Shown one piece after another: positions 13,201-37,200 of a DNA stretch of 44,782 nucleotides. The first letter of the stretch is position 1, and each line of letters opens with the position of its first letter. The translations under genes and the position numbers were made by a program. The notes beneath the pieces are model-generated. The model made no database searches. It had not been told where the DNA came from and was given only the letters and a program-made list of their open reading frames with translations. The stretch lies in sequence record SRR20825006_690. One strand, written 5' to 3'.

Positions 13201-13567
13201 CAGCTGAGGTAAAAACGACCTTCTTTTTCGATTTTTGAACAGCTTCTAAAGCTTCAGAGCGTTGAACAAGGAGAGCGGAGTCTAGGATTTGCTCTTCATC
13301 GTAAGGCTTATGGTTTGTGGGAGGGAAGCTAGTGCTTTCATTTCCATTTAACACTTCAAGGTCGGATTTTACAAAACGCTCGTTTTCATCAGTATCGGTA
13401 ATAACCAGAATCGTTTTCGCTTCTTTTTGAAGCTTACTAATTACGAGCGCATTTAGAGAACCGACACTTTCTTTTAGATACAGTTTCGAGTACTCTTTGA
13501 GCTTAACAGAAAGCTCTTGAAAAGCAGGAGTACTATGAATACTCTTGATAAGTTTGTCTTTTTTCAT
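10235..13567 (-). CDS. mfd: Transcription-repair coupling factor
   Basis: UvrB-like N-terminus (GEFAIRGGIVDVY), RID (VVHVDYGIG), CGDVGFGKTE, DEEQRFG, TATPIPRTL, QLRGRVGRS and TRCF C-terminus. Confidence 0.97.
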   Translation of the reverse strand: MKKDKLIKSIHSTPAFQELSVKLKEYSKLYLKESVGSLNALVISKLQKEAKTILVITDTDENERFVKSDLEVLNGNESTSFPPTNHKPYDEEQILDSALLVQRSEALEAVQKSKKKVVFTSAEALFEKVAPPQLLDKVSIILTKGDEIEQDALKEKLVDQGYSPTRFVDEPGEFAIRGGIVDVYPYAGEYPIRLEFFGDELESIREFDPDSQRSIAFLNQTRFIPDLSNLPDSDKDSFLSYFKDDTVVVLINPELIFAEIDKRFTRANDVYLSKDDEKLTSPKVLYLSKEELETQLSKFESSVIFGSSDISQNSNAAIAKMGSKPQPDFHGNFELVREDIIKNSEAGIHVLICCDNDGQKNRFEELLGEASPSFNYSLVIESFHEGFILKDANIALYTDHQIFNRYHRPKVKRRKYSGGISFKELKDLRIGDFVVHVDYGIGKFAGFKKILVKDNEQEVVVLNYKDDSVLYVNVTSLHKLQKYSGKEGTAPRITKLGSGEWARKKAQTKKRVKDIARELILLYAKRKAQKAYAFGPDNNWQIEMEANFQYEETPDQNAAIIAVKADMENTQPMDRLVCGDVGFGKTEVAVRAAFKAVMDNKQVGVLVPTTILAEQHAKTFEKRLGKFPVKIEALSRFRTKSEQTKVIKDLENGDLNIVIGTHRLLSKDVKFKDLGLIIVDEEQRFGVSAKEKLKEFRAAVDVLTLTATPIPRTLQFSLMGARDLSVINTPPPNRQPVYTEIHGFNEELIRDAILQEISRGGQIFFIHNRVKNIEEVAEMIRRLVPDIRVRFGHGQMTGPQLEKIIGDFYKHKFDVLVSTTIVENGIDISNANTIIINNADNFGLAELHQLRGRVGRSNKKAFCYLITRPIETLTPEARKRLLALEEFSDLGSGFNIAMRDLDIRGAGDILGAEQSGFINDIGFDLYTKILNDAVRELKESEFSHMFEGIEAEIDLPETLVEFDESALLPTNYVNDNVERLNLYRKLSQAKTEKEIIEWEDEIVDRFGPAPKEAKYLIEASKIKLYASRCMFTKVTIRSKRMWAVCPKPESKIGTHFYDSGKFQAIMEGLGKLRADKYQLVQKNDIMRFAIQDIDDIFAVTPFLKQLLNTH

Positions 13568-18310: not shown

Positions 18311-18796
18311 ATGAAAAATAAACTGCTTTTTATAGTACTAATAATTATGATCTTACCTGCGCTAGTAATAGCTCAGGATGGTGGCCCAGTTTCTTCGGTC
18401 TTGTCGGTGTATAGAATTACACTTGACGCTGACGGAAAAGAAATAGCCACAATTACAAGTGAGGTAACACCTGGTGATTTGATAGAATACAGGGTCTCAT
18501 ATACAAACAACGATGCAGGGGCAATCACGGCGCTTCAACCGATGCTGCCAATTCCAACTGGAATGGAATTTGTGAAAGACTCTGCTCGTCCTGCCATAAT
18601 AAGTGCCAGTGTTTCCAGTACAGGTACTGATTTCCAATCACTTCCTTTAACCCGACAAGTGCGACGCCCGGATGGAGCGGTAGTTACCGAAGAGGTACCT
18701 GCTCGTGAATTCCGCAGATTAAAATGGATGGTAGAGTCGCTGGACGTAGGGGAAAGTGTAATTCTAGTCGCCCGGGTAAAGGTGATAGACAAGTAG
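18311..18796 (+). CDS. Small secreted single truncated DUF11-like domain protein (candidate chaperone/cap)
   Basis: Signal peptide VIA|Q. PGDLIEYRVSYTN...PIPTGMEFV...LKWMVESLDVGESVILVARVKV matches the DUF11 core but stops before the last strands. Confidence 0.85.
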   Translation: MKNKLLFIVLIIMILPALVIAQDGGPVSSVLSVYRITLDADGKEIATITSEVTPGDLIEYRVSYTNNDAGAITALQPMLPIPTGMEFVKDSARPAIISASVSSTGTDFQSLPLTRQVRRPDGAVVTEEVPAREFRRLKWMVESLDVGESVILVARVKVIDK

Positions 18797-18857
18797 TCAT
18801 TTTGGAAATCTAAAATTAAAACAAACAATTAATAATTCTAATCTAATAGGATAGAAA

Positions 18858-21494
18858 ATGAACAAAAACAAACATATACATAGTAAGAAAGCATTAAGCT
18901 TTGTTGGTATGCTGTTGCTTTGCGGGTTGTTTATCGGGCTTTCATCATCTGATGTATTTGCTCAGGTACCTCCAGCAGGTCAAAGCATTGGTAACACTGC
19001 TTCTGCAACGTATAAGGATACTGGTGGGATTACCCGTCCAGCTACTTCTAATACTGTAACAACAATCGTTCAGCAGGTTGCTGGATTGACTATTACTCCA
19101 GGTATTTCTAAAACAGTAAGTCCTGGTAACAACATTGCGTTCTCTCATACAATTACCAATACTGGTAACGGTACTGACAACGTAACTGTTGGTGTAGTTG
19201 ATGCCAATCCTTCTGGCGGAGATTTTGATTATACAAACATCAAAGTTTACGGCGATAATGGTGGTGCACCAGATTTAGGTAATGAAATTACAACTGCGAT
19301 TTCAATTCCTTCTACTGGTTCTAACACATACAAAGTATGGATTGTTGCTTCTGTTCCAGCTGGCGCTTCTGATGGCGATACTGAGAACTTAGTAATTACA
19401 GCTACAAGTGGTGTTGGTGCTAATCCATCTGTAACAGCTACTGATATTGGTACAGTTGCAGAAGATGCAGTAATTAACGTTGTAAAAGCAGCGAATACTA
19501 ATATTGCAGAAGTTGGCGATACACTTACTTATACCTTCACGTACAGTAACACTGGTAACGCAGCTGGTACTAACCTTAGAATCTCTGATGAGTTACCAAG
19601 TAATGTAACTTACATTCCTAACTCTGCAGTTTGGTCTGGTACAGCAGGTAACTTAACGGATGCAGCAGCAGGTGACCCAAGTGGTATTACTTACCAATAC
19701 AAGTCTGGTGTTACTGATTCGGTTATTTATGTAGTATCAACTGTAAACTCAGGTAACTCAGGTACAGTTAGTTTCAAAGCTAAAATTAATACTGGCTCTG
19801 AAGGTGCAACTATTTCCAACGAAGGTTTCTATACTCATGATGACATTACTGGATCAGCATCAACTGGCCAAGTAGATGTTACTATTGACGAAGTTTATGG
19901 TATCGTAGTTCAAGGTCCAGCTGTTGTGTCTTCAGATTCTGTAGATCAAGGTTCTACTGTTGATTTATTGAACAAGTTCACAAATATTGGTACTGATACT
20001 GATAACTTTGCGATTACGTACTCTGGAAATACATTCCCAGCTGGTACTCAAATCTTATTTTACCAAACTAATGGTTCTGGCGTTGCCACTAACCCTTACT
20101 CTGGTAATATAGTAACAGGTATTGCACCGGGCGCTACCATTGAAGTTGTTACTCGTATTAGTCTTCCATTAGGAGCTACAGGTGGTCCGTTTAAATTAGA
20201 CAAGACCTTAACTTCTGATAACGATCCAAGTAAATCAGCAACAATTCGTGACTCTTTAGGCGGTATCTTTACTGCAACTGTAGATCTTACGAATGATTTT
20301 GCTTCAGGTACTGCAGGAGCATTAGGTGAAGGTGTAACTACAAATGGTGAAGTTGCAGCTGTTAAAACTCAATCTGCTCTTCCTGCTACATCTGTTAATT
20401 TTACATTATTCGTAAAAAACACAAGTGATATTGATGACAACTACGGTCTATCATATAGCACAGACAATACTTTTGCAGCTATTACTCTTCCTTCAGGATG
20501 GAGTATTGTATTTAAGGATCCAGCTAACGGTAACAGTATAATTACTACTACTGGCAACATCACTGCAGGTGCAAGCAAGCAAGTTATTGCTTCTGTTAGT
20601 ATCCCAGCTGGTTACGCACCAGGCGACGTTGAAATGTTTTTCCGTGTGTTATCTTCAAACACAGGTGCTAAGGATATTATCCACGATAAAGTAACTGTAT
20701 TAGTTAACCAGAGCATTACACTTAACTCAAGCCAATCAGGTACTATTTTCCCAGGTGGTTCTAAGACGTTTGTTCACTCATTTAATGTGAACTCTAACGT
20801 TGACGAGAATGATGGTACTAACTCTGACTTTGAAATCACACTTTCTAACAGTCAGTCTGGTTACAGTGCTCAGGTTTATGTTGATAATGACAACAACGGT
20901 ATTATTACTAATGTCGATTCACTTATTACAAGTGCAACTAGTGGTGCAAATGGTTTCCCTACTACAGTAGGTACATTAAACTACGGCGACGTTGTTAAAC
21001 TGATTGTTAAAGTAACAGCTCCTGCTGGTGCAACTGTAGGTGATAACAACACTACTACATTATCAATCGCTGATCTTGAATCTAATGTTTCTACGCTTAC
21101 CAACACCGATTTGGTAACTGTACAAACAGGTGTATTGAAGATTGAAAAATATCAGTCTCCAGATTCAGCTAACGTTGCATTTGCTCAAGCAAATTTGACT
21201 TCAGTTCCTGGCGATACCATGTACTACAAGCTTGTTATTTATAATGATGGTTCAGGATTTATTTCTGATATCAACATTAGTGATTCAACTCCTGCTTACA
21301 CAAAAATTGTAGGTTCAGCAGTTCTAGAATTCAATGCAGCAAACTTTGCTGGTACAACTGGTGATCTGGCTCCTTCAATTGTTTCTCAGCCAGCAGATGG
21401 CACAAGTGGAACATTGAGTATTCATATTGATAAGCTAGATGCCTCTGATGATGACGTGGTTATCATATTTGCCGTAAAAATTAATGGCAATTAA
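18858..21494 (+). CDS. Secreted tandem Ig/DUF11 protein (878 aa), candidate fibre shaft subunit
   Basis: Signal peptide VFA|Q; N-terminal PAGQSIGNTASATY...SNTVTTIV segment; four NxGxxxD-type Ig domains; one complete DUF11; C-terminal truncated DUF11. Confidence 0.88.
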   Translation: MNKNKHIHSKKALSFVGMLLLCGLFIGLSSSDVFAQVPPAGQSIGNTASATYKDTGGITRPATSNTVTTIVQQVAGLTITPGISKTVSPGNNIAFSHTITNTGNGTDNVTVGVVDANPSGGDFDYTNIKVYGDNGGAPDLGNEITTAISIPSTGSNTYKVWIVASVPAGASDGDTENLVITATSGVGANPSVTATDIGTVAEDAVINVVKAANTNIAEVGDTLTYTFTYSNTGNAAGTNLRISDELPSNVTYIPNSAVWSGTAGNLTDAAAGDPSGITYQYKSGVTDSVIYVVSTVNSGNSGTVSFKAKINTGSEGATISNEGFYTHDDITGSASTGQVDVTIDEVYGIVVQGPAVVSSDSVDQGSTVDLLNKFTNIGTDTDNFAITYSGNTFPAGTQILFYQTNGSGVATNPYSGNIVTGIAPGATIEVVTRISLPLGATGGPFKLDKTLTSDNDPSKSATIRDSLGGIFTATVDLTNDFASGTAGALGEGVTTNGEVAAVKTQSALPATSVNFTLFVKNTSDIDDNYGLSYSTDNTFAAITLPSGWSIVFKDPANGNSIITTTGNITAGASKQVIASVSIPAGYAPGDVEMFFRVLSSNTGAKDIIHDKVTVLVNQSITLNSSQSGTIFPGGSKTFVHSFNVNSNVDENDGTNSDFEITLSNSQSGYSAQVYVDNDNNGIITNVDSLITSATSGANGFPTTVGTLNYGDVVKLIVKVTAPAGATVGDNNTTTLSIADLESNVSTLTNTDLVTVQTGVLKIEKYQSPDSANVAFAQANLTSVPGDTMYYKLVIYNDGSGFISDINISDSTPAYTKIVGSAVLEFNAANFAGTTGDLAPSIVSQPADGTSGTLSIHIDKLDASDDDVVIIFAVKINGN

Positions 21495-21559
21495 GAAATT
21501 GCATTAACCCAATGAGGTTAGGGTTGAGAGCCCTTTCTTCATCTTAAAAAACAAAGAAC

Positions 21560-24500
21560 TTGAAAAACATCCTTAAACATACACTTCTTTTTGTTCTGCT
21601 TTTAGCAGGCTTGGGAGAGGTATATGCTCAGGATGGAGTTCCTCCGCACAACACGAAAATTGTAAATATTGCAGACGGTACTTATGATAGTGCTAAAGGC
21701 CCGGGTGTTGTACACTCAAACTCTGTATTAATCAATATTGATAATCCAGATAGAATAGATTTATTCCCAAATCATACAGTAAGTGAATTTAGAGGTACGA
21801 GTGTACAATTCAATCATACCCTTACAAACAAATCTCCAAATAGTGATTCTTTCGAAATTCAAATTTTCAATGATGGAGATGATGATTTTGACCTAGAAGA
21901 TTTAAAAATCATTTCGGAAGAAAAGTCTAAATCTGTGGCCACTGATACTCTTAAACTACAAGTTACTCTTGCTGCAGGGCAGTCATTTATATTCAAATAT
22001 CAAGGAACAATCAATACTACGGAGCAAACGAGAATAACTGCAAAGATGGTAATTAGAGCAATATCTCTAACAAGTCTTGACCAGGTAGACAACATTGATG
22101 TTATTTCGATATTAAATGGTACAGAAATTCAACTGAATAAAACGTTTGAAGAAGGTTCCGAGTTTGTTCGTGGCGAAACTTTCAATTATGTATTGGAAGG
22201 TAAAAATATAGGTGATATATCAGCTAATGGTACATCCGTTGTTTTAGATGGAGCACCAGCGTCGAAAGTAATTTTAAGAGATAAAATTCCTGCAAATACC
22301 ACGTTCGACAGATTTGTTAGCACTTCTAAAGGAACTCCAGTTTATCATTTATTTGGTAGTGGTGAAGTTGAATACACTTCAATTATACCAACTAGTTTAG
22401 ATGAAATCGATGAGATTGCTGTTCTCTATGACTCAGTTCAAGCAGGTGAGGCTTTTAGCACAACTTTTAGCGTGAGAATTAATGATGCAGCATCAGACTC
22501 ACTGGTCAACGTAGCTGAAGTAACTTATGTTGATCCTGATGGAGATATTACAAAAGCGGCTGCTTCTCAGGAAGTTGTTGCTGAACTCGAAGAAGGCGAT
22601 GCAGACATCAACTACTTTACAGATGAAGGCTTTGGGCAAAAAACGGGTACATCTACTATTGGGAAGCCACTTTTCTTGCAAGCAAGTGCAGGTGCATGTA
22701 ATGAAAATGCTGGCTTAATTGAAACTGTTCGTATTGAAATTACATCTACGCTTACTGGAGACATGGAAGAGTATGGAGCTACCGAAACAGCTCGTAACAC
22801 TGGTATTTTTAGAGTTGATAACCCTGTGCCAACTAGAAGCGCTGCTGAATTCGAGCAGATAACGGGAAACTTGATTTTAGAGGTACTTGAGCAAGACGTA
22901 TTAATTGCAAAACTTGATTGCCAGAACTCTAAAACACAAAATACTTCAATTACTACTCAAATAATTCTAGATCCTTTTGGAATTGTATTTGACTCAGAGT
23001 CTAACAAACCTGTAGAAGGTGCTTTGGTAAAGTTGATTGATGTAACTGGTGCTGGAAACGGTGGTAATGCTGGTGGTTTAGCTAAAGTTTACGATGTTGA
23101 TGGAGTAACTGAGCTGCCAAATGAGCAAATAACTCCTGCAAATGGTGAGTATCGTTTTCCTTTTATTCAACCAAGTTCTTACCGAATTGAAGTTATAGCT
23201 CCTAAAGGTTACGAAGCCCCATCGCAAGTAAATAAAGCTTTGCTGGATCCAGCAAGAATAGTTAAAGATTCATTGTCATACGGTGGAGTATTTATTATTA
23301 ACGTTATTCCACAATCAATTGAAAGTGATATTCCAATTGATCCAACAGGAACTAATGTTTTATTCACTAAGAAAACAGTTAATAAATCTGCCGTTGAAAT
23401 TGGAGATTACCTTACTTATACAATTACAATTTCTAGTAAAGCGGTAAACAATATCGATTCTACCAAAATTGAAGATCATCTTCCTTTTGGTTTTGAATAT
23501 CAGCTTGGCTCTGCTCGACTAGATGGCGTAGCTTTTTCAGACCCAGTTGGTGGAACTGGTCCAACCTTAATCTTTAATGTTGGTACTGTAAAGCCTTTAA
23601 CCTCTGTTGAACTAAGCTACAAAGTGTATGTAGGACCAGGGGCAGAGCGTGGTGATGGAATAAACACTGCAATTTCAAGCAGTGAAGAAGGTGTTGTACA
23701 CCGCCAAAGTTTACCAGCTAAAGTGAAAGTAGAAGTAAACGGTGGTGTTTTTAGTAACGACGCATATATAGTTGGAAAGGTTTTTGCCGACCTCAACGAA
23801 AATAAAGTTCAAGACCCTTACGAAAAAGGTGTGCCAGGCGTCCGTTTATACTTAGAAACTGGCTCTTATGTTGTAACCGATGTAAAAGGTAGATATACTT
23901 TTTACGGTATTACCCCAAATAAACATGTTCTAAAGCTCGATAACACTTCACTACCTAAGGGTTCTCGTCTTAATATTCTTGATAACCGTCATGCTAACGA
24001 TCCATCAAGCAGGTTTGTGGATTTGAAAAATGGTGAAATGCAACGAGCCGATTTTGCAATTTGTTATTGCGCAGGTGATATTGTTGATGAAGAAATTGAC
24101 CGCCGTATTACTGCATACTCTGAAAACAATGATGAATTAAAGAACTCTTTAAATCAAAGCTTTTCTACAGAAGAACAAGCTACCTCTAAACAAGGTGGTT
24201 ACGGTAACATTAGTGGTGTTGTTGGGGGAGCAGAAGTTAAAGATGTTAAGCGCAATACAACTAGCACAACTAAAGCTGTTGATTCCACTAAAGTGGAAAG
24301 CTCTATCGCTAAAATTGAAGAGCGAGATTTACTCCTAGAAGCTGTTGAAAATGGAAGTCCTGATCTTGAAATGTTAAATATCGTTGATGGTGATACTCTA
24401 AAGTCTACCACATTGAAGCTTCAAGTAAAATCATCATCAAGCGCTACAGTATATTTATATGTTAACGAAGACCTTATTGGTGTAGATAATGTAGGGCGAA

Positions 24501-27500
24501 CTGAAATCAATGAGAATACTGGAGTTCAAGGGCTGGAGTTTTATAACCTAGGTTTAAAAACAGGCAAAAACGTACTTACGCTTCAAGTAAAAGATCCTTT
24601 TGGAAATGTTCGAGAAGAACAGATTGCTACACTTTACGCACCAGGTAAACCGGCTCAATTAGTAATAACTATTCCTAGAAATAATATTGAAGCAGATGGC
24701 GAATCCAAAGCCTTAATTAATGTTGATGTAACCGATGAAAACGGAATGCATATCGGTTCTGAATTTCAAATCACTCTCGATCTATCTGAAGGCAAATTGC
24801 TTGTTCAAGATGAAAACCCTAAAGAACAAGGCACACAAGTTACCCTAAGTTCTGGGAAAGGAAGCTTTACGTTAAAGGCACCAATTGAGCCAAGAACAGT
24901 GAAAATAGTTGCGAAACTAGGAGTTTTAACTGATGAAGCTCGATTAAACTTTGTTCCTAATTTAAGACCTCTAATTGCTGCTGGTATTATTGAAGGTACG
25001 ATTAGACTTAGCGAGCCATTGAGTATTAGCTCTGCGAGCAGTTCTGATGGTTTTGAGCGTGAACTAACAGCTCTTTCTCGTAGTTTCGAGAACTTCACTT
25101 TAGATGGTCGTTTCGCATTCTTCTTAAAAGGTAAAATTGCTGGTAGTACTTTATTAACGGCATCGTACGACTCAGAGAAATCTGAAGAAGAGCGTTTGTT
25201 TAGAGATATAAGGCCAGATGAATTCTATCCTGTTTATGGCGAAACATCGCTAAAAGGATACGATGCACAAAGTTCTGGTAGACTTTATATCCGTTTAGAC
25301 CATAACAAAACCTACGCTGTTTACGGCGATTTCATTACGCAGGAAAGAGACCAAGATCGTCAACTTGGTGATTATAGCCGTGCCCAAACAGGTATTAAAA
25401 CTCATTTCGAAAATGAAATATTAAAAGCTACAGCATTTGGTAGTCAATCTTACTCTAGCAGATTAGTAAGAGAATTCTCTGGACAAGGTATTTCAAGATA
25501 TGAGCTTCCAGATGAAGAGATTGTTATAAATAGTGAGATTATTGAAATTCTTGTTTACGATAGAGATCAACAAGATGTTCTATTAAGTAGTACTCGTTTA
25601 ACACGTTTCAAAGATTATGCGATTGAGCCGTTTACAGGAACATTGGTATTTTCAGAAGCTATTTCTAGTGTAGATGAAAACTTTAATCCTGTTGTGATTA
25701 GAGCCACTTATGAAGTAGAAAACGGTGGCGACAAATACCTTATTGGTGGGGCAGATGTATCAGTTAGCCCAATTGATGGTTTAGAAATTGGAGCTGGTAT
25801 TGTTCAAGATCAAAATCCTGAAGACAATTTCAACCTTACTTCTGTTAATGCTGGCTATAGCATTGGGAAAAACACAAAAATAGTTATTGAAGGTGCTCAA
25901 ACTATTACTGATAGCAAGGGCACGGGCCAAGCAGGTAGAGTAGAAATTCAGCATAAAAATAACTTAGCAAATGTTAGACTTCAGGTTGGTAGATCCGATA
26001 AAGATTTTGCAAACCGATCTACAACATTAAGCAGTGGTAAAACAGAAGCTAAAGTTAAAGGTCGTTTGAAACTGGGTAATTCTTCAAGTTTAAACACCGA
26101 AGCTCTTTATTCTCGTAATGATACTACTGGCAACGAAACTGTTGGTGGCTTAATGACCTTGCAAAAAACATTCTTTGGAAACATCAGTACTGAGTTAGGT
26201 TTGCGCTATTCAAGACAAGAAACAGGTGTTGGTACTACCTCAGCTGAGGTTATTGAGAACACAAACTTAAGAAGTAAGCTTTCTGCGGATCTTCCATTTA
26301 TTGACGGCTTCTCAACTTTTGCGGAATACGAGCAAGATTTAAACAATGCTGATAAGCGTCTTTTTGCATTAGGTGGCGATTATAAAATCAACAACTTTGC
26401 TAAAGTGTATGCTCGCCACGAGTTTTCTTCTTCTGCTGAAGGTAGATACACATTAAACGAGAATGTTAGAAAACAAAACTCGGTATTTGGTATTAAGTCG
26501 AGCTATATGAAGAATGGCGAAGTATATAGTGAATATCGTATTAACGACGCTGTTGACGGTGAAAGTGGACAAGCTTCATTAGGGCTAAGAAATAGTTTTC
26601 AGTTAGCCGATGGCTTTAACTTAAACGCCGGCTTTGAACGTATCTTTACTGTGAAAGGGAAAAGAGGCGGAGACGGAACGGCAATTTCTACGGCCTTAGA
26701 TTACACGGCAAATCCAAACTGGAAAGCTACAGCAAAAGCAGAAGCTCGTTTTACTAGCTCTGACAGAACGTATGTAAACAGTCTCGGTTATGGCCAACGT
26801 ATTAATGAGTCTTGGACATTCTTAGGTAAAAACATTATTGCACTAGCTGAAAAAGCAGGTACTTCAGGCTTTAGCAAAGTTCAAGAAAGATTACGTTTAG
26901 GTGCTGCATATAGAGACGTAGATACCAACAGGTGGGATGCTCTTTTCCGTTATGAATTTAAATACGAAAACGACAAAAATGTAAGTGCTGATTACGAAAG
27001 AAGTGTACACGTTTTCTCAAACCATGCAAACTATCATCCTTCAAATGATTGGACTTTCTCTACTCGTTTAGCTGCAAAATACGCTGTTGAGAATGATACT
27101 GACTTCAGTGAGTCAAGCTTCTTAGAGTTAGCTTCAGGTAGAGCTTTATACGATATCAACGAAAAGTGGGATGCAGGCGTAAACGCTAGTTTGTTAGCAA
27201 ATAGCGACTTTACTACTAAAGATTATGGAATGGGAGTTGAAGTAGGTTTTATTGCAGCAACGAACCTAAGAATTGCAACAGGCTTTAACTTCTTTGGATA
27301 CGATGACGAAGATCTAGTGGATAATTCTTACACAAGAAAAGGTGCTTATTTAGGCTTTAGCTATAAATTTGATGAACGTTTGTTTGAGTCACTTGCGCCT
27401 ACTAAACATAAGCCATTCCTAGATCCAAACTTGTATCTAACCTGTGATGCTGTTGAAGTTTGTAATCCAATATTAATCTTGGATTTAGAAAAAGACTGGT

Positions 27501-28735
27501 TTACCGCAAGCTTAACACCTGCACAAATTGAAGCAGTTAATTTTGTATATGAAGAACTTGAATCACAGACCTTGTTACCTAAACAAATTCACTTTGACAA
27601 CAACTTGACTTATATCAACCGCCCTGCTTCGCAGATGCTTGATAAGGTTGCAAAGTTCTTATTTGAGAGAGACGATTACATTATCAATGTTACCGGCCAT
27701 ACGGATAGTAAAAGTACTTATGCATATAACTTAGACCTCTCTAAGAGAAGAGCAAAAGCAGTAAGAGCTTACTTGGTTGCTTCTGGTGTTGATCCTGACA
27801 GGTTGGTATTTGATGGAATGAGCTTTAACGAGAATGCTGCTGTTGAGAATGATCCAATTGATATGGCTAAAAACAGACGTGTAGAGTTAGATTTAAATTC
27901 AGAAAACTTAAACGTTCGTTTTGTTGACCAAGTAGAAGATTTACAGGTTAACAAAAAAATCCCTGCAATTGGTGGATGGGATTTCATTTATAACCCAGAG
28001 CATAAAGCGGTTCCAGCTAACATCAACCTAACAAATGGTTTCAATCAATTAAGCCCTATTAATAGCTACATGATAGAGCGAATTGCAATTGCATTAAAAG
28101 AATATACTGAAGTAGATGTAACAGTTGGTATTGCTGGCAGTCCTGAGTTTGAAAATATAAGCGAACTTATAGAGGCAGAATTTATTTTTAATGGTATTTA
28201 TGATGACAGAGTTAGCTTCGAAAAAACAACAGGGGCTAATCCTTTTGTAGTTTCATTGACGTATACGAAACCACAATTATTGGAAATCATAGAGCAAAGT
28301 GATGACGTGAAATTTAAAGGGGACAAAAAGGCGTTCAGTATGATGCAGAACTTATTGGATGTTCTTAAAAAGCGTGATGATTACACATTATTACGTGACT
28401 TCTCTCAAACGTATGTAGTTCCAGATAGAATTAAATACGAGGCTCGAATTTCAAAACTAAGTAACGAAAATCAAGCAATTCTATCTAGAATTGGCTCGTA
28501 CTTAAGAAATAGCCAAGGAGTTTATTTAGAGCTTAGAGCAGACGGCTCAGGTACTGGTGCTAGTAGAATGCAAGCAATTAAAGATTATTTAGTGAAATGG
28601 GGAATAGCAGAAGGTAGAATTAGCATCAGTGAGATGGGAAGTGGCTTAGATAGTAATAGAGTGTTGTTCAAGTATCTAAAAGCTGATGCTATCAATCTTT
28701 TGGATATAGACATTCTCTATAGAGGTGGAAATTAA
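21560..28735 (+). CDS. Giant outer-membrane protein: Ig/DUF11/SdrD-B-like domains, large beta-barrel region and OmpA-like C-terminus (2391 aa)
   Basis: Signal peptide VYA|Q; two DUF11 domains; SdrD-B-like GKVFADLNENKVQD...GVPGVRLY; long amphipathic-strand region ~24960-27370 ending GAYLGFSYKF; OmpA motifs GHTDS...YNLDLSKRRAKAV...NRRVEL. Confidence 0.88.
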   Translation: MKNILKHTLLFVLLLAGLGEVYAQDGVPPHNTKIVNIADGTYDSAKGPGVVHSNSVLINIDNPDRIDLFPNHTVSEFRGTSVQFNHTLTNKSPNSDSFEIQIFNDGDDDFDLEDLKIISEEKSKSVATDTLKLQVTLAAGQSFIFKYQGTINTTEQTRITAKMVIRAISLTSLDQVDNIDVISILNGTEIQLNKTFEEGSEFVRGETFNYVLEGKNIGDISANGTSVVLDGAPASKVILRDKIPANTTFDRFVSTSKGTPVYHLFGSGEVEYTSIIPTSLDEIDEIAVLYDSVQAGEAFSTTFSVRINDAASDSLVNVAEVTYVDPDGDITKAAASQEVVAELEEGDADINYFTDEGFGQKTGTSTIGKPLFLQASAGACNENAGLIETVRIEITSTLTGDMEEYGATETARNTGIFRVDNPVPTRSAAEFEQITGNLILEVLEQDVLIAKLDCQNSKTQNTSITTQIILDPFGIVFDSESNKPVEGALVKLIDVTGAGNGGNAGGLAKVYDVDGVTELPNEQITPANGEYRFPFIQPSSYRIEVIAPKGYEAPSQVNKALLDPARIVKDSLSYGGVFIINVIPQSIESDIPIDPTGTNVLFTKKTVNKSAVEIGDYLTYTITISSKAVNNIDSTKIEDHLPFGFEYQLGSARLDGVAFSDPVGGTGPTLIFNVGTVKPLTSVELSYKVYVGPGAERGDGINTAISSSEEGVVHRQSLPAKVKVEVNGGVFSNDAYIVGKVFADLNENKVQDPYEKGVPGVRLYLETGSYVVTDVKGRYTFYGITPNKHVLKLDNTSLPKGSRLNILDNRHANDPSSRFVDLKNGEMQRADFAICYCAGDIVDEEIDRRITAYSENNDELKNSLNQSFSTEEQATSKQGGYGNISGVVGGAEVKDVKRNTTSTTKAVDSTKVESSIAKIEERDLLLEAVENGSPDLEMLNIVDGDTLKSTTLKLQVKSSSSATVYLYVNEDLIGVDNVGRTEINENTGVQGLEFYNLGLKTGKNVLTLQVKDPFGNVREEQIATLYAPGKPAQLVITIPRNNIEADGESKALINVDVTDENGMHIGSEFQITLDLSEGKLLVQDENPKEQGTQVTLSSGKGSFTLKAPIEPRTVKIVAKLGVLTDEARLNFVPNLRPLIAAGIIEGTIRLSEPLSISSASSSDGFERELTALSRSFENFTLDGRFAFFLKGKIAGSTLLTASYDSEKSEEERLFRDIRPDEFYPVYGETSLKGYDAQSSGRLYIRLDHNKTYAVYGDFITQERDQDRQLGDYSRAQTGIKTHFENEILKATAFGSQSYSSRLVREFSGQGISRYELPDEEIVINSEIIEILVYDRDQQDVLLSSTRLTRFKDYAIEPFTGTLVFSEAISSVDENFNPVVIRATYEVENGGDKYLIGGADVSVSPIDGLEIGAGIVQDQNPEDNFNLTSVNAGYSIGKNTKIVIEGAQTITDSKGTGQAGRVEIQHKNNLANVRLQVGRSDKDFANRSTTLSSGKTEAKVKGRLKLGNSSSLNTEALYSRNDTTGNETVGGLMTLQKTFFGNISTELGLRYSRQETGVGTTSAEVIENTNLRSKLSADLPFIDGFSTFAEYEQDLNNADKRLFALGGDYKINNFAKVYARHEFSSSAEGRYTLNENVRKQNSVFGIKSSYMKNGEVYSEYRINDAVDGESGQASLGLRNSFQLADGFNLNAGFERIFTVKGKRGGDGTAISTALDYTANPNWKATAKAEARFTSSDRTYVNSLGYGQRINESWTFLGKNIIALAEKAGTSGFSKVQERLRLGAAYRDVDTNRWDALFRYEFKYENDKNVSADYERSVHVFSNHANYHPSNDWTFSTRLAAKYAVENDTDFSESSFLELASGRALYDINEKWDAGVNASLLANSDFTTKDYGMGVEVGFIAATNLRIATGFNFFGYDDEDLVDNSYTRKGAYLGFSYKFDERLFESLAPTKHKPFLDPNLYLTCDAVEVCNPILILDLEKDWFTASLTPAQIEAVNFVYEELESQTLLPKQIHFDNNLTYINRPASQMLDKVAKFLFERDDYIINVTGHTDSKSTYAYNLDLSKRRAKAVRAYLVASGVDPDRLVFDGMSFNENAAVENDPIDMAKNRRVELDLNSENLNVRFVDQVEDLQVNKKIPAIGGWDFIYNPEHKAVPANINLTNGFNQLSPINSYMIERIAIALKEYTEVDVTVGIAGSPEFENISELIEAEFIFNGIYDDRVSFEKTTGANPFVVSLTYTKPQLLEIIEQSDDVKFKGDKKAFSMMQNLLDVLKKRDDYTLLRDFSQTYVVPDRIKYEARISKLSNENQAILSRIGSYLRNSQGVYLELRADGSGTGASRMQAIKDYLVKWGIAEGRISISEMGSGLDSNRVLFKYLKADAINLLDIDILYRGGN

Positions 28736-30270
28736 TGAAAGGATTCATGGCTACATATAGATTAGTTACAATGCTTGTGATGACACTTGTATTTGGTGCA
28801 GTTGCAGTGGCACAACCATCTGGGTATAAATACTCGAAAAGTGTTACAATAAATGCGTCCCAAGTTCAGGGTACTAATACCGATTTCCCAGTATTAATTA
28901 GTGTTACAGATGCAAACCTTAGTAGCAATGTTGAGAATAGTAACGGCTACGATATCATTTTTACTTCTAATGCAAATGGAACTGGAATATTAAGCCACGA
29001 GCTTGAGAGTTTTAATTCAGGAACGGGCAAATTAACAGCTTGGGTTAAAGTTCCTTCAATAAGTTCGGGATCTAACACTACCATTTATATGTTTTATGGG
29101 AGAAGTTCAGGAACTGCGAATACTTCTACCACAGCGACTTGGGATACTAATTTCAAGTTAGTAATGCACATGGAAGCAAGCCTAGTTGATGCTACCTCTA
29201 ACGGTAACAATGGCTCAAATAATGGAACTGGGGCAGCTACAGGGTTAATTGGAAATGCTAGAGACTTCGAAAGAAATAACGATGACTATATTACTGTAGC
29301 CGACGATAATAGCTTAGATTTAACCAACCAGTTAACTATTTCTTTTTGGCTTAATTTAGAATCAGATATTGAACCTGATTATATCACAAAAGGCCAAAAT
29401 GAGTCCTATGAAATTTCATCTAGAAGTACAAGAAGGCCTTTCTTCAAAAGAAATAATAATTCAAGTTCTTTAAGCTCTGGTACTACTATAGCTCAAGGGT
29501 CATGGGTTTATCTTAGCTATGTAAAAACTACGACACAAAAACTCATTTATATTAATGGGAATTTAGATACCTCACATAATGATTCAGGAAGTTTTGACAC
29601 AAACAGTGATGACCTTCAAATTTCTAGAAGTGGAGATGCTATGGACGGCCTCATGGATGAGATTCGTATTTCAAGCATTCCTCGTTCTGCAAATTGGATT
29701 AAAACAGAATATAACAACCAACTAAATCCAGGTGCATTTATAACACTTGGGCCACAAGTGGAATACATTCCTCCAACAGCTCCTCAAAATGTAGTAGCCA
29801 CTTCATTAGCAGGTGGTAACTTAAGAATTTCTTTTGATGATGTTGACGAATCAGGTTCTGGCGTAGCTAGTTATTCTGTAAAACGATCTGCCACTCAGGG
29901 TGGTCCTTACACTCAAGTTGGAACAGTAACCGATAACGAAAGTGCTATCTATTATTTTGATGATAGCACCGTATCAAACAATGTAACTTATTACTATGTA
30001 GTTACTGCCATTGATGGCGACAACAACGAAAGTGTGATTTCTGCTGAAGTTTCGGCTTTGTCTGATGGTATAATTCCTCCAGCGCCTACAAATGTAAGCG
30101 CTACAAGTCAGCCTGGTGGGGGAATCCTCATAGCTTTTGATGATGTAGACGAAACAGGTTCGGGTGTTAAAGATTATTCAATTCAAAGATCTACTACTCA
30201 AGGTGGACCGTATAGTGGGGTTGGTGTGGTAACAGATAAAAGAAAGTGCGAGCTACACATATACCGATAA
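28735..30270 (+). CDS. N-terminal part of a frameshifted giant adhesin: DUF2341 + LamG/ConA-like lectin + FN3 repeats
   Basis: Signal peptide AVA|Q; DFPVLIS...YDIIFT...AWVKVP...IYMFYG (DUF2341); LamG (IYING...GLMDEIRISSIPRSANWI). The reading frame breaks inside the second FN3 repeat. Confidence 0.85.
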   Translation: MKGFMATYRLVTMLVMTLVFGAVAVAQPSGYKYSKSVTINASQVQGTNTDFPVLISVTDANLSSNVENSNGYDIIFTSNANGTGILSHELESFNSGTGKLTAWVKVPSISSGSNTTIYMFYGRSSGTANTSTTATWDTNFKLVMHMEASLVDATSNGNNGSNNGTGAATGLIGNARDFERNNDDYITVADDNSLDLTNQLTISFWLNLESDIEPDYITKGQNESYEISSRSTRRPFFKRNNNSSSLSSGTTIAQGSWVYLSYVKTTTQKLIYINGNLDTSHNDSGSFDTNSDDLQISRSGDAMDGLMDEIRISSIPRSANWIKTEYNNQLNPGAFITLGPQVEYIPPTAPQNVVATSLAGGNLRISFDDVDESGSGVASYSVKRSATQGGPYTQVGTVTDNESAIYYFDDSTVSNNVTYYYVVTAIDGDNNESVISAEVSALSDGIIPPAPTNVSATSQPGGGILIAFDDVDETGSGVKDYSIQRSTTQGGPYSGVGVVTDKRKCELHIYR

Positions 30271-31280
30271 TTCTGCTGTAAATGGTACTTCTTATTATTA
30301 CGTAGTGGTTGCGCTTGATGGAGCTAATAATGTGAGCTTAGAATCCAATGAAGTTTCTGATGTATCAGATGGAAGTGCTCCAAACGCTCCAAACAATGTG
30401 GTTGCAGCAGGCTTAGCTGGTGGCGACATTCAAGTTTCGTTTGATGACGTTGATGAGACAGGAAGTGGAGTAGCAAGCTATTCGATTAGAAGATCCACCA
30501 CACAAGGAGGGGCATATACACAAGTTGGAGTGATTAATGATAATGAGAGTTCTAGCTATACTTATACCGATAATACAGTTTCAAATGGTACAACCTATTA
30601 CTATGTAGTAGCAACTGTTGATGCTGTTGGAAATACAAGTTCTAACTCTTCCGAAACTTCTTTTACAGCAGATTCGATTATTCCTGTGCTACAATCGGCA
30701 ACTGCGGAAGGAACGATGTTGGTTCTAGATTATAATGAACCTTTAGAGAGTTCACCTGTTCCTAGTAATGGTGATTTTGTTGTAAAAGTGAATAATCTTA
30801 CTAGGAATGTGGCTTCTGTAGCAATAAGTAATGATTCTGTAAAAATTACATTGAGTAGCACAATAATTATCGGTGATAACATCCAGGTAAGTTATACTGC
30901 CGGAACTAATCCAATTCAGGATATTTCTGGAAACGATGCAGTAAACTTAACGAACCAAACTGTTACTAATAATACACCAGATAACACAGCACCTCCTGCA
31001 CCAACTAATGTAGCAGCTTTTGCTCTTGTAGGAAGCGATATTGATATTAAATTTGATGATGTTGATGAAGTAGGGAGTGGTGTTGTTTCTTATTCCATTC
31101 GAAGAGCTACTGTTTCAGGAGGTCCGTATTCACAAATTGGGACAATTACAGATATTGAAAGTGTTAATTACACTTATACCGATAATACAGCGTCTATTGG
31201 CACTACTTATTATTATATAGTGGTGGCAATTGATGCTTCTTCAAATGAAAGCACAAACTCATCAGAAGTAACAGCTGAGT
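29770..31280 (+). repeat. Four closely similar FN3-type repeats in the adhesin
   Basis: Recurrent AP.NV.A...GG.I.I.FDDVDE.GSGV.SYSI.R..T.GGPY..VG...D.ES..Y.Y.D...YYYVV.A.D at ~29770, ~30075, ~30375 and ~30990. Confidence 0.85.
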
Positions 31281-34200
31281 CAGGTACTGTTACGGATGCT
31301 ACCGCTCCAAGTGTATCTACAACTACTGTTTCTGGAAACAGATTGATACTTGATTACAGTGAAGATTTAAATGAAAATTCGGTTCCTTCAACCACTGATT
31401 ATGTAGTTAAAATTAACGGCTCTCCAGCAACAATTTCAGCTGTAGATATTAATGGGGATAAGGTAAGTATTGATTTCACACCAAGTGTAGATGCAGGTGA
31501 TAATATTACCGTAGATTATACCGCTGGAGTAAATCCAATTCGTGATATTGTTGGCAACAACGCCAATAGTTTTACTTCTTTATTAGTTAATAACAGCGCA
31601 GCATTTACTACAGGTTTTGGGCCCGATCCTTGTCCTATCGTAAATGGGAAAGATGCTGCATGGACTTGTTTCGATGGAAGCAACAATGGTACAACCATGC
31701 GTGCTGAAGTTGGTGGGCTTGAAATAGCAACTATTACAGCCGCCTCAGGAAGTCAAACAACATTCTCACCCAATGCACTACAATCTTGGACAAGCGGTGC
31801 TTTTTCTGGTGATGAATTTAACGGCCCACAAATCAATGCTACAGGGAACGGTGGTAATGCTACTTCATTCGATATAAACATTCCTGTAGGTGTGCCATCC
31901 GATGCAATTATGTTATCGTTAAACAGATTACGTCCTGATGGTGGTGGAACTTCGTACACGTTAGAAGCTTTTGACGGAAGTAACACAAAAGTTCCACTTA
32001 ATGGTTGGTTAACTGGGCAAGGATCTGATGGGGGAGTTTGTACAAATTCAGTTAATATTAATTATGCAAATGGAAACACCACTATACAGTTTCAGCCTAC
32101 GGTTTCTGGCGTTCCTGCATGTGCGTCTTCATCAACTCCAGTTTGGTTTAAAATTACAAACGAAAACGTCCGACGGATTGAATTAAGAAAAACAGCTGCT
32201 CAACCAGATAACATTTATTTAGGATTAGCTTTGGTTGCTGACTTTGGTGATGCACCAAACGTTTATGGAACGAGCTACAGTTCAAGAACAGCGCCTCCTG
32301 CTTTTCACCTGCTAAATAATGATGCTCCAAACGTTGTTTATTTCGGTGCTGGCGTAGATGCAGATGGTAACGGTATACCTAGTTCTGCTGCCAATAATGA
32401 TGTAGAGGATGCAATTGTAAACTTTCCAGTTCTTACTTCTGCTACTACAAATTATTCGGTTACATTAAGTTGTACCAACGGTGGAAATGTAGGAGCATGG
32501 ATAGATTTTGATCAGTCAGGATCTCTTGATGAAGGCGAATTTGACTCAGGAATTTGTTCCTCAAATAGTGTAACGCTAAACTGGTCGGGACTTTCTGGAA
32601 TGATTACAGGAACGTCTTATGCTCGTTTCAGAATTGCAAGCAGCGCTAATGAAGTAGCTACACCAACAGGTTCTGCAAAAGATGGTGAAGTTGAAGATTA
32701 TCAAATAACTATTTCTGAGCCAAAAACACCAGATTTGAGTCTTGTTAAATCGGTTAATAACTCTACTCCAATTGTGGGAGAAACCATCACCTATACGTTA
32801 ACTGTAACTAACCCTGGTGAATATATTGCTACCGATGTTAGAGTTACAGATGTGCTCCCTGCTGGCGTTACATTTGTAAGCTCAACTGCTAGTCAAGGTA
32901 ATTATAATAACGTAACGGGTGTTTGGATTATAGGCAACTTTGCTGCTGGCGATACTACTATTGCTACACTAGATATAGAAGCTTTAGTTGATGCTGGCAC
33001 TTTAGGTTCGGTTATTACCAACTCGAGTTCAATTTCGAACTTAAACGAAACAGATTTAAACCTTGCCAATAACTCTTCTGAAACGGGTATTACCGTTGTT
33101 CCAGAATCTGCTGATATCGGGATTACAAAAATAGCGAGTAACGCAAACCCAATTGAAGGCGAGTTTATGTCCTTTACGGTTTCAGTTACTAACAACGGGC
33201 CAAAAGCAGCAACGAATCTTAAAATTCTGGACCAATTACCTACAGGTATTACATATCAAGATTCTTTGCCAAGTGTAGGTATTTACAATCCCTCAACAGG
33301 AATTTGGGACATTGGAAATTTAGCTAATGGAGCAAGTGCTTCATTAATTCTAAACGTTAGAGTAGATGGAAGCACTCAAGGAAATACCATAAATAATACG
33401 GCTGCACTTAATGGAATGGACCAATCAGATTCTAATTCCCAAAATAACACAGCAACTGCTTCTATTACCATAGTTCCACCAATAGCTAATTTATCGTGTG
33501 GACTTCCATACTTGAAATTCCGAAACGCGTCACTTATATCAGGGAGTGCGCTGCAAATAGGGGCCGTATATAAATTTCCGAATGTTCTTACTGGGGTTTA
33601 TGCAAAAGTTGAAATTGTTACTATTAATAACGCCACAATAAAGAATATTGATGATGGCGTTACAAGTGGTCTACCAAATGAATTTTCTCCCTTTATAGAA
33701 AATACAACTGGTGGTAACGGTTACCTTGACTTTGAGATCTCATTTTATGATTCGGCGTCTAATCTTTCTCGTTATTTATCTTTCGCAGCTACTACTTCCG
33801 ATGTTGATGGGACTGGTGATCTGAAGGATTTTGTTGGATATCAAAATCTAAACTCATTTATAGTTGAGAATACAACTGAACTGGTTGTTGGTACAGAAGG
33901 GTTATACACAACTTTTACTTCAAATGACTTTTCAGATACTTCGCCTAATCAGAATGATTATTCAGAATACAAAGTCTATACATCTTACACTAATGAGCCA
34001 AAATTTAGGCTTCGTGCAGGGATAAAAGCTGGAAACACAGTTGATGATCGTATTATTTCAGTAAATTTTGATCCTTGTGAGATTAATACATTCAATGATC
34101 CTGTAACTCAAAGTGTGGTCGATGTTGGTGTAACAAAATCTGTTGATGATAATTCAGTTACTGTTGGTCAAACTGTAACCTATACTGTACAAGCTGCCAA

Positions 34201-37200
34201 TAAAAAAGCTAATGCTGTGGGGAGTGTGAAAATTACAGATCAACTTCCAGGGGGTTTGACTTACGTTTCTTCTAACCCAAGTCAAGGTACTTATAACAGC
34301 GGAACTGGCATTTGGGACGTTGGGTCACTTTCAGGATTACAAGTTGCTACTATTGATATTGTAGCAACAGTAAATACTGGTCAGCAAGGAAATACCATTA
34401 CTAACACTGCAACTCTAAGCGATAATAGCGGCGTAGATGGAGTTGCCGCAAATAATACAGCATCAGTAGCAATCGCTGTATTTGATCCAAACTCTGGATT
34501 GAGTTGTACTGAACCGCCTAAATATTCTTTTATCAATTATAACCTTGAACAAGGGTCTAATAATCAAGTAAATTCGATTTACCGTTTTTCTAGTGTAGCA
34601 TCTGGTGTGGATGCAAAGGTAAAGATTATAGGAATTAATAACGCCACAATAAACGCTTTAGATGATGATGGAACAGTATCAAGTGGACAAGCAACTACCA
34701 CTAACTTCTCGCCATTATTTACCACAAATAATGGTACAAGTGCAGGTTATATCGATTGGGAAATTACATTTGTTGAGGCTGGAACTAATACTCCAATAAA
34801 AAGTAATTTCTCTGTTACTGCCTTAGATATTGATGGTACAAGTTCGGGTGGACAAACTATTCGAGATTATTATGGTTTTGCTCAGAATTTGTCTTCTACT
34901 GTTCAAGCTGGAAATAATATTAACGTAAGTACTCAAGGCCCATTTCAAATCTTTGAATCTTCGGTAACAAGTGATGCCAATGGTTCTTTCGATATCGATC
35001 ATATGGCGTATATTTCTTATAAATATACTTCTGTCTTTCAAGTTAGGTCTGGTTCTTTCCCAACGGGAGGGTACTCGAGTCAACGTATGGTTGAGTTTAA
35101 TTTTACGGAATGTTTGAATCAGGAATTTACAAACCCTGTTATAACAACTAGAGATGCTGATTTACAAGTTACAAAAACAGTAGATCAAGCTAATCCTTTA
35201 GAAAACGAAACCGTTAACTTCACAATCAGTGTTAAGAATAATGGACCTGAAGATGCTACAGAAGTTTCAATTAACGAGGCATTGCCAGCAGGCATTACTT
35301 TAGTTGAAGCTGTTCCAAGTCAAGGAACTTATAACCAAATTACAAAGCTTTGGAATCTTGGAACACTTGCAAATAACGCAACAGCTACCTTAGCACTCGA
35401 AACAACTATTAATCAAGGTTTGAGCCAAGATTCTTTGATTAACAAAGCATATGTAAAAGGCTTTAACCAGTACGATCCAACCATAGCAAACGATACTTCT
35501 CAGGTTGTATTGAAAGTTAGCGTTCAAGTAACTGGTACGGTGTTTAGAGATAAAACAGGCGATGGAATTACCGATGGCGATACCAATTTTGGAGATGCTT
35601 CAGGTGATCAACAAGCATTAGAAAATGTAGAAGTGCATCTCTTTAAAGACGGAGGAGATGGACTCGCTAACGGTGTGGATGATATCTACAAAGCTACAGT
35701 TCTGACAAACAACCAAGGAAAGTATGTATTCCAAATAGGTGAAAATGCGCCTTACTGGATTGCTGTAGATTCAAAAACTGGTGGGCTTTCGAATAACACC
35801 ACTTGGGCAGAACAAACGTATGCTCCAATTAACGCTCTTTGCAACGATGGTAATGGTGGAACCGATACTACAACAGTTGCTGGAAATTGCTTTGGTGGTA
35901 GAAGAGGTGGCGTTTCAGATAATATATCTACAAATCCTGTAGCCAGTGATTTGGCAAATGCTGAACACGTGGCTAAAGTTGCTGTATATGGTGGTGGTAC
36001 TACCGGTATCGACTTTGGTTTTAGCTTTAACGTAGTTACTGACGTTAGAGATGGTGATGATGATGGTTCCACTGCTCGTTCCATTCAAGGTTCGCTGCGT
36101 CAATTTATTGCAAACGCCAATGCAATTACTGGTGCGAATTCAATGCGATTTGTACCAGCGGTACCAACAAATCAATCATCTGGTGGGGGTAATTGGTGGT
36201 CTATTACGGCTTCATCGGCATTTCCGGCAATCACAGATGCACTTACAACCGTTGACGGTTCTGCTTTCGATCAATTTGCTCCTGTAACAGAAATGGACGA
36301 TAACTCTGGTTCTATCGGAACAGGCGGAAGTGTAGGTTTAGATTTACTTTCTATAAACTCTGCTAGTTTAAAAGAGCTAGAACTGAACTTAAATGATATT
36401 GGAGCAAGCGCTCTAAACATAAATAGCTCTGGTGCAGTTATAATTCGAGATTTAGCGATTTACAATAACAGTGTTGGTATTCAAATTACTTCGATGTCTG
36501 GCGGAACCATAGAAAATAACATGATTGGTACACGTGCAAATGGCGTTGACCCAACCGGTTCATCTAGATTAGACAAAGGTATTTCAGTAGTTGGAAGTGG
36601 CTCACTTTCGGCTCTTATAACTAAGAATTATATCGCATATGCAAATACAACGGGTGTTGCTGGTGATAACCCAAGTTCAAGTGTAACCCTATTTAAGAAT
36701 GAGGTTTATAAGAATGGTTTAGTTTCGGCAGGTGGCGATGGTATTGAAATAATCGGTACTTGGTCGGTCGAACAAAACTTAATTCACGAATCTGGTAATT
36801 CTTCCAGCTCCCCAATATCAGGCGGAAACGGTATTGAGATTGGTAAAGCTTCAGGTTTAAGCACAGGTAGCACCATTCGAAATAACACCATCATAAATAA
36901 CAGTGTTACAGGTATTAACGTATTTAACAACGTAACCAACACCGTTATTGAAAAGAATATAATTACTGGAAACGGAACCAATTATTCGTCGGCAAACACG
37001 CGACTTGGAGCAGGTGTTAAACTCACTTTCCCAAATACTCAGCCTCAGAATGGAATTAAGATTACTAATAACAGCTTTGCAAATAATTATGGTTTAGCAA
37101 TTGATATCGTTACCTCTGGTTCTGGGCAAGCTGATGGAGTTTCAGGTAATGATGGCGTTCTAGAGTCCACTTCAACTGAGCCAAACAGAGGAATTGATTA

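Follow-up and report, generated by a model that had tools for sequence, protein, structure and literature searches.

The small gene at positions 18311 to 18796 of the window (the whole stretch of 44,782 nucleotides from sequence record SRR20825006_690 that was analysed) codes for what is probably the acceptor half of a split CLIPPER (DUF11) domain, a half that is 'dead' by nature and binds donor strands non-covalently. The gene lies in an operon that appears to encode a surface fibre with a CLIPPER domain divided between two polypeptides. The fold class of the small protein, its truncation point, the loss of its Lys and Asp, the motifs carried by its neighbours, the linkage of the genes and the predicted mode of binding were all obtained by computation. 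The small gene has the following features.

18311..18796, + strand: small gene, coding for a 161-aa secreted, shortened and putatively unreactive acceptor of the DUF11/CLIPPER type
18311-18373, + strand: signal peptide of the small protein, Sec type, cleaved between VIA and QD
18401-18403, + strand: codon for Leu31 of the small protein
18545-18547, + strand: codon for Leu79 of the small protein

The small protein contains no Cys, so that a lipobox Cys is absent as well, and its mature part comprises residues 22–161 (~140 residues). It scored 27.3 bits against the DUF11-type repeat model TIGR01451, which exceeds the cut-off (24 bits; residues 49–93), and 15.6 bits against Pfam DUF11, which falls short of the cut-off (24.6 bits; residues 49–157, profile positions 10–83 of 114). 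At E≤1 the Pfam scan returned, besides DUF11, only DUF6414 at chance level. When a profile of the small family was searched against 1.84 billion representatives, 13,780 proteins matched at E≤0.001, a figure that is dominated by multi-DUF11 giants and is no count of small family members; among the 150 matches listed from this total nearly all were giant multi-DUF11 proteins, aligned at profile positions ~40–90. The TIGR01451 match, the sub-cut-off Pfam match and the profile matches together identify the small protein as a DUF11-superfamily domain. Among the ESM Atlas neighbours of the small protein were clusters of 164–183-aa 'DUF11/TIGR01451' proteins, mostly from Pseudomonadota, and a search for fused forms found no close homologue of 283–2000 aa at 1e-5, which is weak evidence.

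The AF2 monomer of the small protein is a single all-beta domain with a mean pLDDT of 85.5 and 114 residues at 90 or above. Foldseek searches of the PDB with this model gave nothing at E≤0.001, and a sequence search of the PDB gave a chance match only (E 1.1). The VIA wide fold search recovered generic Ig-sandwich matches only (best Z 8.2), and comparison with the solved CLIPPER domain (9IFR) gave Z 7.1 (rmsd 2.6 Å over 87 residues, 20% identity), a value that falls inside the range of the generic Ig matches. A monomer that is modelled confidently on its own and resembles Ig sandwiches in general is what would be expected if the small protein were an ordinary, self-complete Ig-like DUF11 protein, with an insertion filling the open edge of the sandwich and no binding of donors; a predicted complex would then be an artefact of likeness. 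The absence of the triad from many DUF11 domains, according to the available part of the CLIPPER paper (PMC12617251), points the same way. We consider this explanation quite improbable for reasons that emerge from the truncation point, the gene neighbourhood and the modelled complex. The insertion in question comprises ~30–40 residues and is missing from the other DUF11 domains aligned. Two of its residues, P112 and W139, are invariant and lie outside the predicted donor interface, and the surrounding stretches LPLTR and EYRRLRW are kept across the small family, as read from the alignment. This suggests a second contact surface on the insertion.

In the CLIPPER domain (DUF11, PF01345; PDB 9IFR) an intramolecular isopeptide bond links Lys to Asn, presumably with catalysis by Asp748; judging from residue positions, the Asn lies on strand 8 of 9, the last but one, and the available text of the paper also mentions DUF11 domains without the triad (PMC12617251). 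The sequence-only reading had described the small protein as an acceptor domain in which both reactive residues were replaced by Leu. The Lys and Asp positions are indeed lost, but the term 'both reactive residues' needs amendment, as the bond in the solved domain joins Lys and Asn and the Asp is the presumed catalyst; the Asn, the third residue, is carried by the donor. Three alignments agree on the replacement of Asp by Leu79. This residue occupies the Asp column both when the small protein is aligned by MAFFT to ten DUF11 domains of the operon and when it is aligned by hmmalign to an HMM of five complete domains from the window; with hhalign, 48 small proteins compared with 23 C-terminal domains of the 878-aa type (96.7%, E 4.3e-10) place Leu79 opposite Asp809. 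The replacement of Lys by Leu31 is indicated by alignment by eye and by the complex model, strand A being outside all HMM and profile alignments. Whatever register is chosen, no Lys column is conserved in the 48 members of the small family, in which the invariant columns are G42, P54, G55, Y60, N66, P82, P112 and W139.

The loss is consistent among orthologues. In 40 close homologues Leu31 is nearly invariant and Leu79 invariant, and in the translations of 21 more distant loci the Leu31 position is L or M and the Leu79 position L, G or Q, never K or D. The same pattern of loss is common to relatives in Balneolaceae and Proteobacteria; because the small family is monophyletic, however, the uniform loss may represent one ancient event rather than repeated selection. 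The small protein does not carry a Lys-Asp-Asn triad within one domain and, given Leu at both the Lys and the Asp positions, would be unable to form an isopeptide bond.

The other two structural claims of that reading, that the final strands and a donor peptide are both missing, were borne out. The small protein stops at a column shared with the C-termini of the 878-aa and 2883-aa proteins, directly before the Asn-bearing 'G..I.N.A' strand of complete domains (MAFFT, HMM and hhalign), and in hhalign the small-family and 878-aa acceptor profiles are aligned to the last residues of both. At the other end, the mature N-terminus leads directly into strand A. The small protein therefore shares its truncation point with the acceptors of the operon but not their conserved Lys and Asp. 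An end column identical to that of reactive acceptors is difficult to reconcile with a self-complete protein. The genes that encode these acceptors and the matching donors lie downstream on the same strand.

18858..21494, + strand: gene for an 878-aa subunit ('MID') with an N-terminal donor, internal Ig-like domains and a C-terminal truncated acceptor
18963..19097, + strand: donor segment of the 878-aa protein, aa 36-80, with the Asn46 codon at 18993-18995
21120..21491, + strand: reactive C-terminal acceptor of the 878-aa protein, aa 755-878, which stops before the Asn strand
21147-21149 and 21282-21284, + strand: codons for the acceptor residues Lys764 and Asp809 of the 878-aa protein
21560..28735, + strand: gene for a 2391-aa protein ('BIG') with an N-terminal donor-like segment, DUF11, SdrD_B and Big_1-like domains and a C-terminal OmpA domain
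21638..21739, + strand: donor-like segment of the 2391-aa protein, aa 27-60, with Asn36 in the donor Asn column
28735..38956, + strand: giant adhesin, in two ORFs (28735-30270 and 30305-38956)
38639..38953, + strand: reactive C-terminal acceptor of the giant adhesin, with Lys and Asp kept and the same end column as the small protein

The donor of the 878-aa subunit is a 45-residue segment that follows the signal peptide and aligns without gaps across 24 loci from Balneolaceae, Beta- and Gammaproteobacteria. Its mean column identity is 67%, compared with 39% identity for the whole protein, and its invariant columns are A5, I9, N11, A13, D19, S29, N30, V36 and V39. The donor Asn (Asn46 in the window) is present in all 24 loci. 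At the C-terminus of the same subunits, Lys and Asp are each retained in 22 of 23 acceptors, the exception being L033, which has neither. The HMM of the five complete domains from the window places the 878-aa donor at positions 94–127, which cover the Asn and the last strand, albeit weakly (3.2 bits), and the two C-terminal acceptors at positions 7–90 and 16–88. In addition, a whole CLIPPER domain lies inside the 878-aa protein (residues 201–325), and its K210/D244/N321 triad is almost invariant. With this triad and the truncated C-terminal acceptor, the 878-aa protein would combine one intramolecular lock with half of an intermolecular one. In its AF2 model the donor segment is confident and stranded (pLDDT 85–90); the model does not distinguish cis from trans docking, and the protein may close in cis on its own donor.

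The donor profile finds an N-terminal donor of the 2391-aa type in 23 of the 24 loci. Of the 24 loci, 20 have the Asn; in L033, L040, L041 and L043 it is replaced by V or T. The 2391-aa protein is closed by an OmpA domain (1.1e-21, Pfam) and has no C-terminal acceptor. A long stretch of it (aa 1151–2000) has no sequence match in the PDB and no match in Pfam, and is a putative beta-barrel. In the giant adhesin a signal peptide is combined with DUF2341, LamG, five DUF11, GEVED and beta-helix domains, and no donor motif was found; a search of the nearest genome (G001), used in place of the window's own, gave only one donor match at E≤10. An acceptor-only adhesin, an 878-aa protein with both donor and acceptor and a donor-only 2391-aa protein suggest a polarity, and the simplest reading of these sequences would be a fibre running from the adhesin at the tip through 878-aa subunits to the 2391-aa protein as terminator and anchor. 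With regard to the chain terminator that had been proposed as one role of the small protein, the donor-only 2391-aa barrel protein would be the better candidate for terminator and anchor alike.

The two ORFs of the giant adhesin (511 and 2883 aa) are in different frames, with the break at ~30240–30300. The equivalent adhesin ORF in the nearest genome (L089) is one gene, free of stops for at least 1038 aa, and the break in the window represents either an assembly error or a disrupted adhesin gene. A 133-aa ORF (38956–39357) begins at the adhesin stop codon and, by eye, has the look of a CheY-type receiver.

In order to model the binding of a donor, the complex of the mature small protein (22–161) with the donor segment of the 878-aa protein (aa 36–80) was predicted without alignments. 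The ipSAE values were 0.90, 0.89 and 0.89, whereas three controls scored 0.00–0.01 (best 0.01); 51 of 78 solved complexes and 2 of 108 mismatched pairs attain this mark. Contacts agreed between runs to at least 94%, and the partner pLDDT was at least 86. The small protein is thus predicted by the model to take up the N-terminal two-strand donor. In the model, the two strands of the donor pair with residues 73–80 and with strand A of the small protein, whose interface consists of strand A (25–33), residues 49–54, alternate residues of 58–64, residues 68–80, 82–85 and 144, and the C-terminus (158–161). The donor contributes residues 9–20 and 27–40, which include eight of its nine invariant columns. 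Leu31 contacts donor residues Asn11, Thr12, Ala13 and 29–32, and Leu79 contacts Ala13. From this contact pattern the donor would occupy the place that the final two strands have in a complete CLIPPER domain, with its Asn predicted to be set against Leu31, the replacement of Lys, and with Leu79, in place of Asp, meeting the neighbouring Ala13.

The alignments and the model (0.89 versus 0.01) thus agree with the earlier description of the small protein as an acceptor-type half-domain that has lost its triad residues. The score may do no more than mirror a resemblance to complete CLIPPER domains, through which the two parts of any split domain tend to pass such a test, and is silent on affinity and on which acceptor a donor prefers. 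The near-zero controls, the position of the insertion outside the modelled interface and the tight linkage to donor-bearing genes all speak against a self-complete protein without a donor.

This linkage was followed across loci. Searches with the small protein led to 49 loci, of which 38 have an ORF of ~875–980 aa and then one of at least 1,900 aa downstream, and these are spread over Balneolaceae, Beta- and Gammaproteobacteria; in L009 the long downstream ORF is split in two pieces, and several other loci are cut by contig ends. The donor profile alone, applied to 301 genomes of the phylum, found matches in 40, including 33 of 49 genomes of the window's family and 18 of 18 of its genus. The small gene lies directly upstream on the same strand in all 30 Balneolaceae loci found with this profile (E 1e-50 to 6e-71), which are kin and no independent cases. 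In five loci from other families of the phylum (L080, L081 and L083–L085) no small gene was detected within the 14 kb read. A scan for promoters and terminators performed no better than shuffles.

Several further observations were made on these loci. A further, diverged triad of small, subunit and barrel genes is present as a second copy in one genome of the window's genus (L088, 6228–14000 of G029:C1:2052000-2066000); its small protein measures 162 aa in the stop-to-stop frame and matches the family profile with E 1e-32. Contigs from marine RNA libraries contain parts of the small gene (window 18339–18752; two runs, two studies, 90–95% identity) and of the subunit gene (window 18855–21509; four studies), which signifies presence in RNA libraries only, neither transcription nor its level.

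The position of the other half of the domain allows a mechanism to be outlined. One subunit would end in a domain equipped with Lys and the catalytic Asp and shortened by its last two strands; these, the Asn included, would be provided by the mature N-terminus of the next subunit. The small protein, having the same truncated fold, would accept the same two donor strands with no isopeptide bond and would then hand them over to a reactive acceptor, where the covalent bond would make the transfer irreversible. Our preferred, if tentative, reading is therefore that of a periplasmic holdase or placeholder for donor strands, which is in line with the chaperone role suggested from the sequence. Several observations favour it: the small gene belongs to the invariant core and adjoins the subunit gene, the chemistry of its relatives has been lost, and the conserved insertion lies outside the modelled interface. 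For the small protein we infer that no bond is formed, that binding is transient, that its location is periplasmic and that hand-over takes place. Strand-complemented complexes are typically very long-lived. 'Non-covalent' need not therefore imply 'transient', which counts against a holdase.

Long-lived binding leads to another explanation, namely that the small protein stays for good on the free donor of the most distal 878-aa subunit as a cap or initiator, either as the minimal tip of adhesin-free fibres or as a primer with which assembly begins at the outer-membrane protein. Given the inferred polarity, a protein that is an acceptor only could act at the distal end only, or transiently, and the 'chain terminator' of the sequence-only reading is for this reason better termed a distal cap or initiator. 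An acceptor without a donor fits no other position in a donor-to-acceptor chain of this polarity, and the modelled complex is a completed canonical fold with no strained intermediate, as would suit a permanent cap. Proteobacterial loci are often devoid of a giant adhesin within the flank examined. The giant adhesin of the same operon, however, possesses a reactive acceptor suited to donors of this kind, with which a permanent cap would compete, and one would expect a loaded tip to retain the covalent lock of its relatives. The conserved insertion would have no obvious role in a cap, and the small gene is the first and most tightly linked of the core triad, as is the case, by analogy only, for assembly factors more than for optional tips.

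Variant loci bear on the same question. In three loci from other families of the phylum the gene directly upstream of the donor-plus-acceptor subunit gene encodes a secreted protein of 358–431 aa (L082:5301-6593, + strand; L086:1945-3018, + strand; L087:7446-8624, − strand) with a C-terminal truncated DUF11 (Pfam, 31.8–37.1 bits) that ends at profile positions ~54–79 and has Thr or Ser in the Lys column and Asn in the Asp column. The N-terminal parts of these proteins (~250 aa) have no match in Pfam. A larger protein of at least 647 aa, from another family of the phylum, has Leu and Ala in the Lys and Asp columns of its truncated DUF11. Unreactive truncated DUF11 domains at the end of larger proteins look more like a means of cargo attachment than like chaperones, and such fusion to larger N-terminal parts in related systems is consistent with a cap. 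So is the occurrence of non-covalent junctions elsewhere in the system, which seem to be structurally tolerated, as four of 24 barrel donors are without Asn and one acceptor is without Lys and Asp. All in all, we regard a permanent cap or initiator as somewhat unlikely, and the holdase remains our preferred reading.

The junctions just mentioned deserve a separate description. In L033, a Polaromonas MAG, the acceptor of the subunit (gene 10469–13411) has Thr in both the Lys and the Asp columns, and the barrel-protein donor encoded by the next gene (from 13465) has Val in the Asn column, while the donor of the subunit itself keeps its Asn; the whole triad has apparently been lost in a coupled manner at one junction. 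In the betaproteobacterial loci L040, L041 and L043, in which proteins of at least 2,262 aa are encoded by ORFs cut by the locus end, the donors have Thr, Val and Thr, respectively, with no Asn, and the subunit acceptors retain Lys and Asp. In these loci, attachment to the anchor may therefore do without a covalent bond, as a feature of the clade.

The predicted donor binding and the absent bond chemistry would also suit a competitive decoy that titrates donor strands and so sets the number of subunits per fibre or the amount of free barrel donor. Upstream co-transcription, with no terminator-like site before the subunit gene in a scan that was no better than chance, would be compatible with such a length or display regulator. 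Specific support for regulation was not obtained, however, and strict conservation across phyla is less expected of a regulator, which makes this alternative very improbable.

In the literature searched, with most subscription journals outside its scope, neither a split or intermolecular CLIPPER fibre nor its small subunit was found to be described. The operon apparently brings known principles (donor-strand complementation, spontaneous isopeptide locking and accessory strand-complementing proteins) together in an undescribed diderm system. In its boldest form, which we consider doubtful, the proposal would be that the small protein is a dedicated chaperone and the first natural 'dead catcher', keeping the reactive tag strand safe within the periplasm and delivering it to an outer-membrane barrel that serves as usher, terminator and peptidoglycan anchor, in an undescribed class of sortase-independent covalent fibres built from split CLIPPER domains in diderms (Balneolaceae, Beta- and Gammaproteobacteria and others). 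If this were true, diderms of several phyla would build covalently locked fibres without sortases by sharing a self-crosslinking domain between subunits, and a chemically disarmed catching half would have been retained to control the crosslinking reaction. It would add an assembly pathway to those of chaperone-usher, type IV, type V, curli and sortase pili, offer a possible role for thousands of small 'DUF11 repeat' proteins, and provide a natural orthogonal trio of tag, catcher and dock for protein engineering.

The closest relative is the CLIPPER domain itself, with which the small protein shares the sequence superfamily (TIGR01451) and the Ig-like sandwich fold. Unlike CLIPPER, the small protein has no Lys, Asp, Asn strand or last strand, and is a free-standing protein of ~140 residues when mature, with an insertion of 30–40 residues; the strands that it lacks are apparently supplied by another polypeptide. 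The available text of the CLIPPER paper does not use the word 'split' and refers to intermolecular bonds in general terms only (PMC12617251). A locking principle of a similar kind is known for BsaA of Clostridium perfringens, a member of the TasA family, in which 'donor-strand exchange and lock' ends in a spontaneous Lys-Asn bond (bioRxiv 10.1101/2024.11.04.621531). As far as the accessible part of that report goes, an N-terminal strand is likewise inserted into the next subunit and then locked, and paralogues without the N-E-K triad are encoded alongside; BsaA differs in fold and family, in having Glu rather than Asp as catalyst, in its monoderm host and in its secretion route, and no role as donor receptor is proposed there for the triad-less paralogues (10.1101/2024.11.04.621531). 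NCBIfam and Pfam scans of the small protein gave no TasA-family match, and the N-E-K triad is absent from it.

The thread filament of Sulfolobus acidocaldarius likewise unites donor-strand complementation with isopeptide bonds between subunits, but it is archaeal, its subunit is unrelated and no dead acceptor is described in the available part of the paper (PMC9715654). In the Elr (WxL) system of Enterococcus faecalis, the portion of the report at hand describes a near-universal core of chaperone (ElrE) and pilin with variable tips and anchors, and subunits that the chaperone primes through strand complementation (bioRxiv 10.64898/2026.10.17.759780). As characterized there, ElrE differs in being a membrane-anchored DUF916/DUF3324 protein, and the system in its WxL fold, its non-covalent fibre and its restriction to Bacillota. 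The isopeptide passages of a 2026 review attribute covalent crosslinking of pili to monoderm sortase pili only. Matches to 'DUF11' in the tafi paper turned out to be DUF1102, which is unrelated.

The Pfam scan of the small protein gave no match to the PapD-like two-domain sequence families. PapD and FimC are small periplasmic Ig-like chaperones that complete the fold of a subunit non-covalently until it is handed over to the next subunit. The proposed analogy is that a small Ig-like protein is encoded together with a subunit and an outer-membrane protein. Apart from the lack of sequence similarity, the small protein consists of one domain and PapD/FimC of two, and the polarity is reversed, as the small protein would offer the groove and the subunit the strand. 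In contrast to chaperone-usher fibres, moreover, the final contact between subunits is predicted to be covalent. The engineered SpyCatcher/SpyTag pair is a split isopeptide CnaB2 domain from a Gram-positive adhesin, and the non-reactive SpyDock binds the tag reversibly. The small protein would be analogous to SpyDock, a catcher half that has been made unreactive and retains tag binding; unlike SpyCatcher and SpyDock, however, it occurs naturally, is CnaA-like and belongs to an operon.
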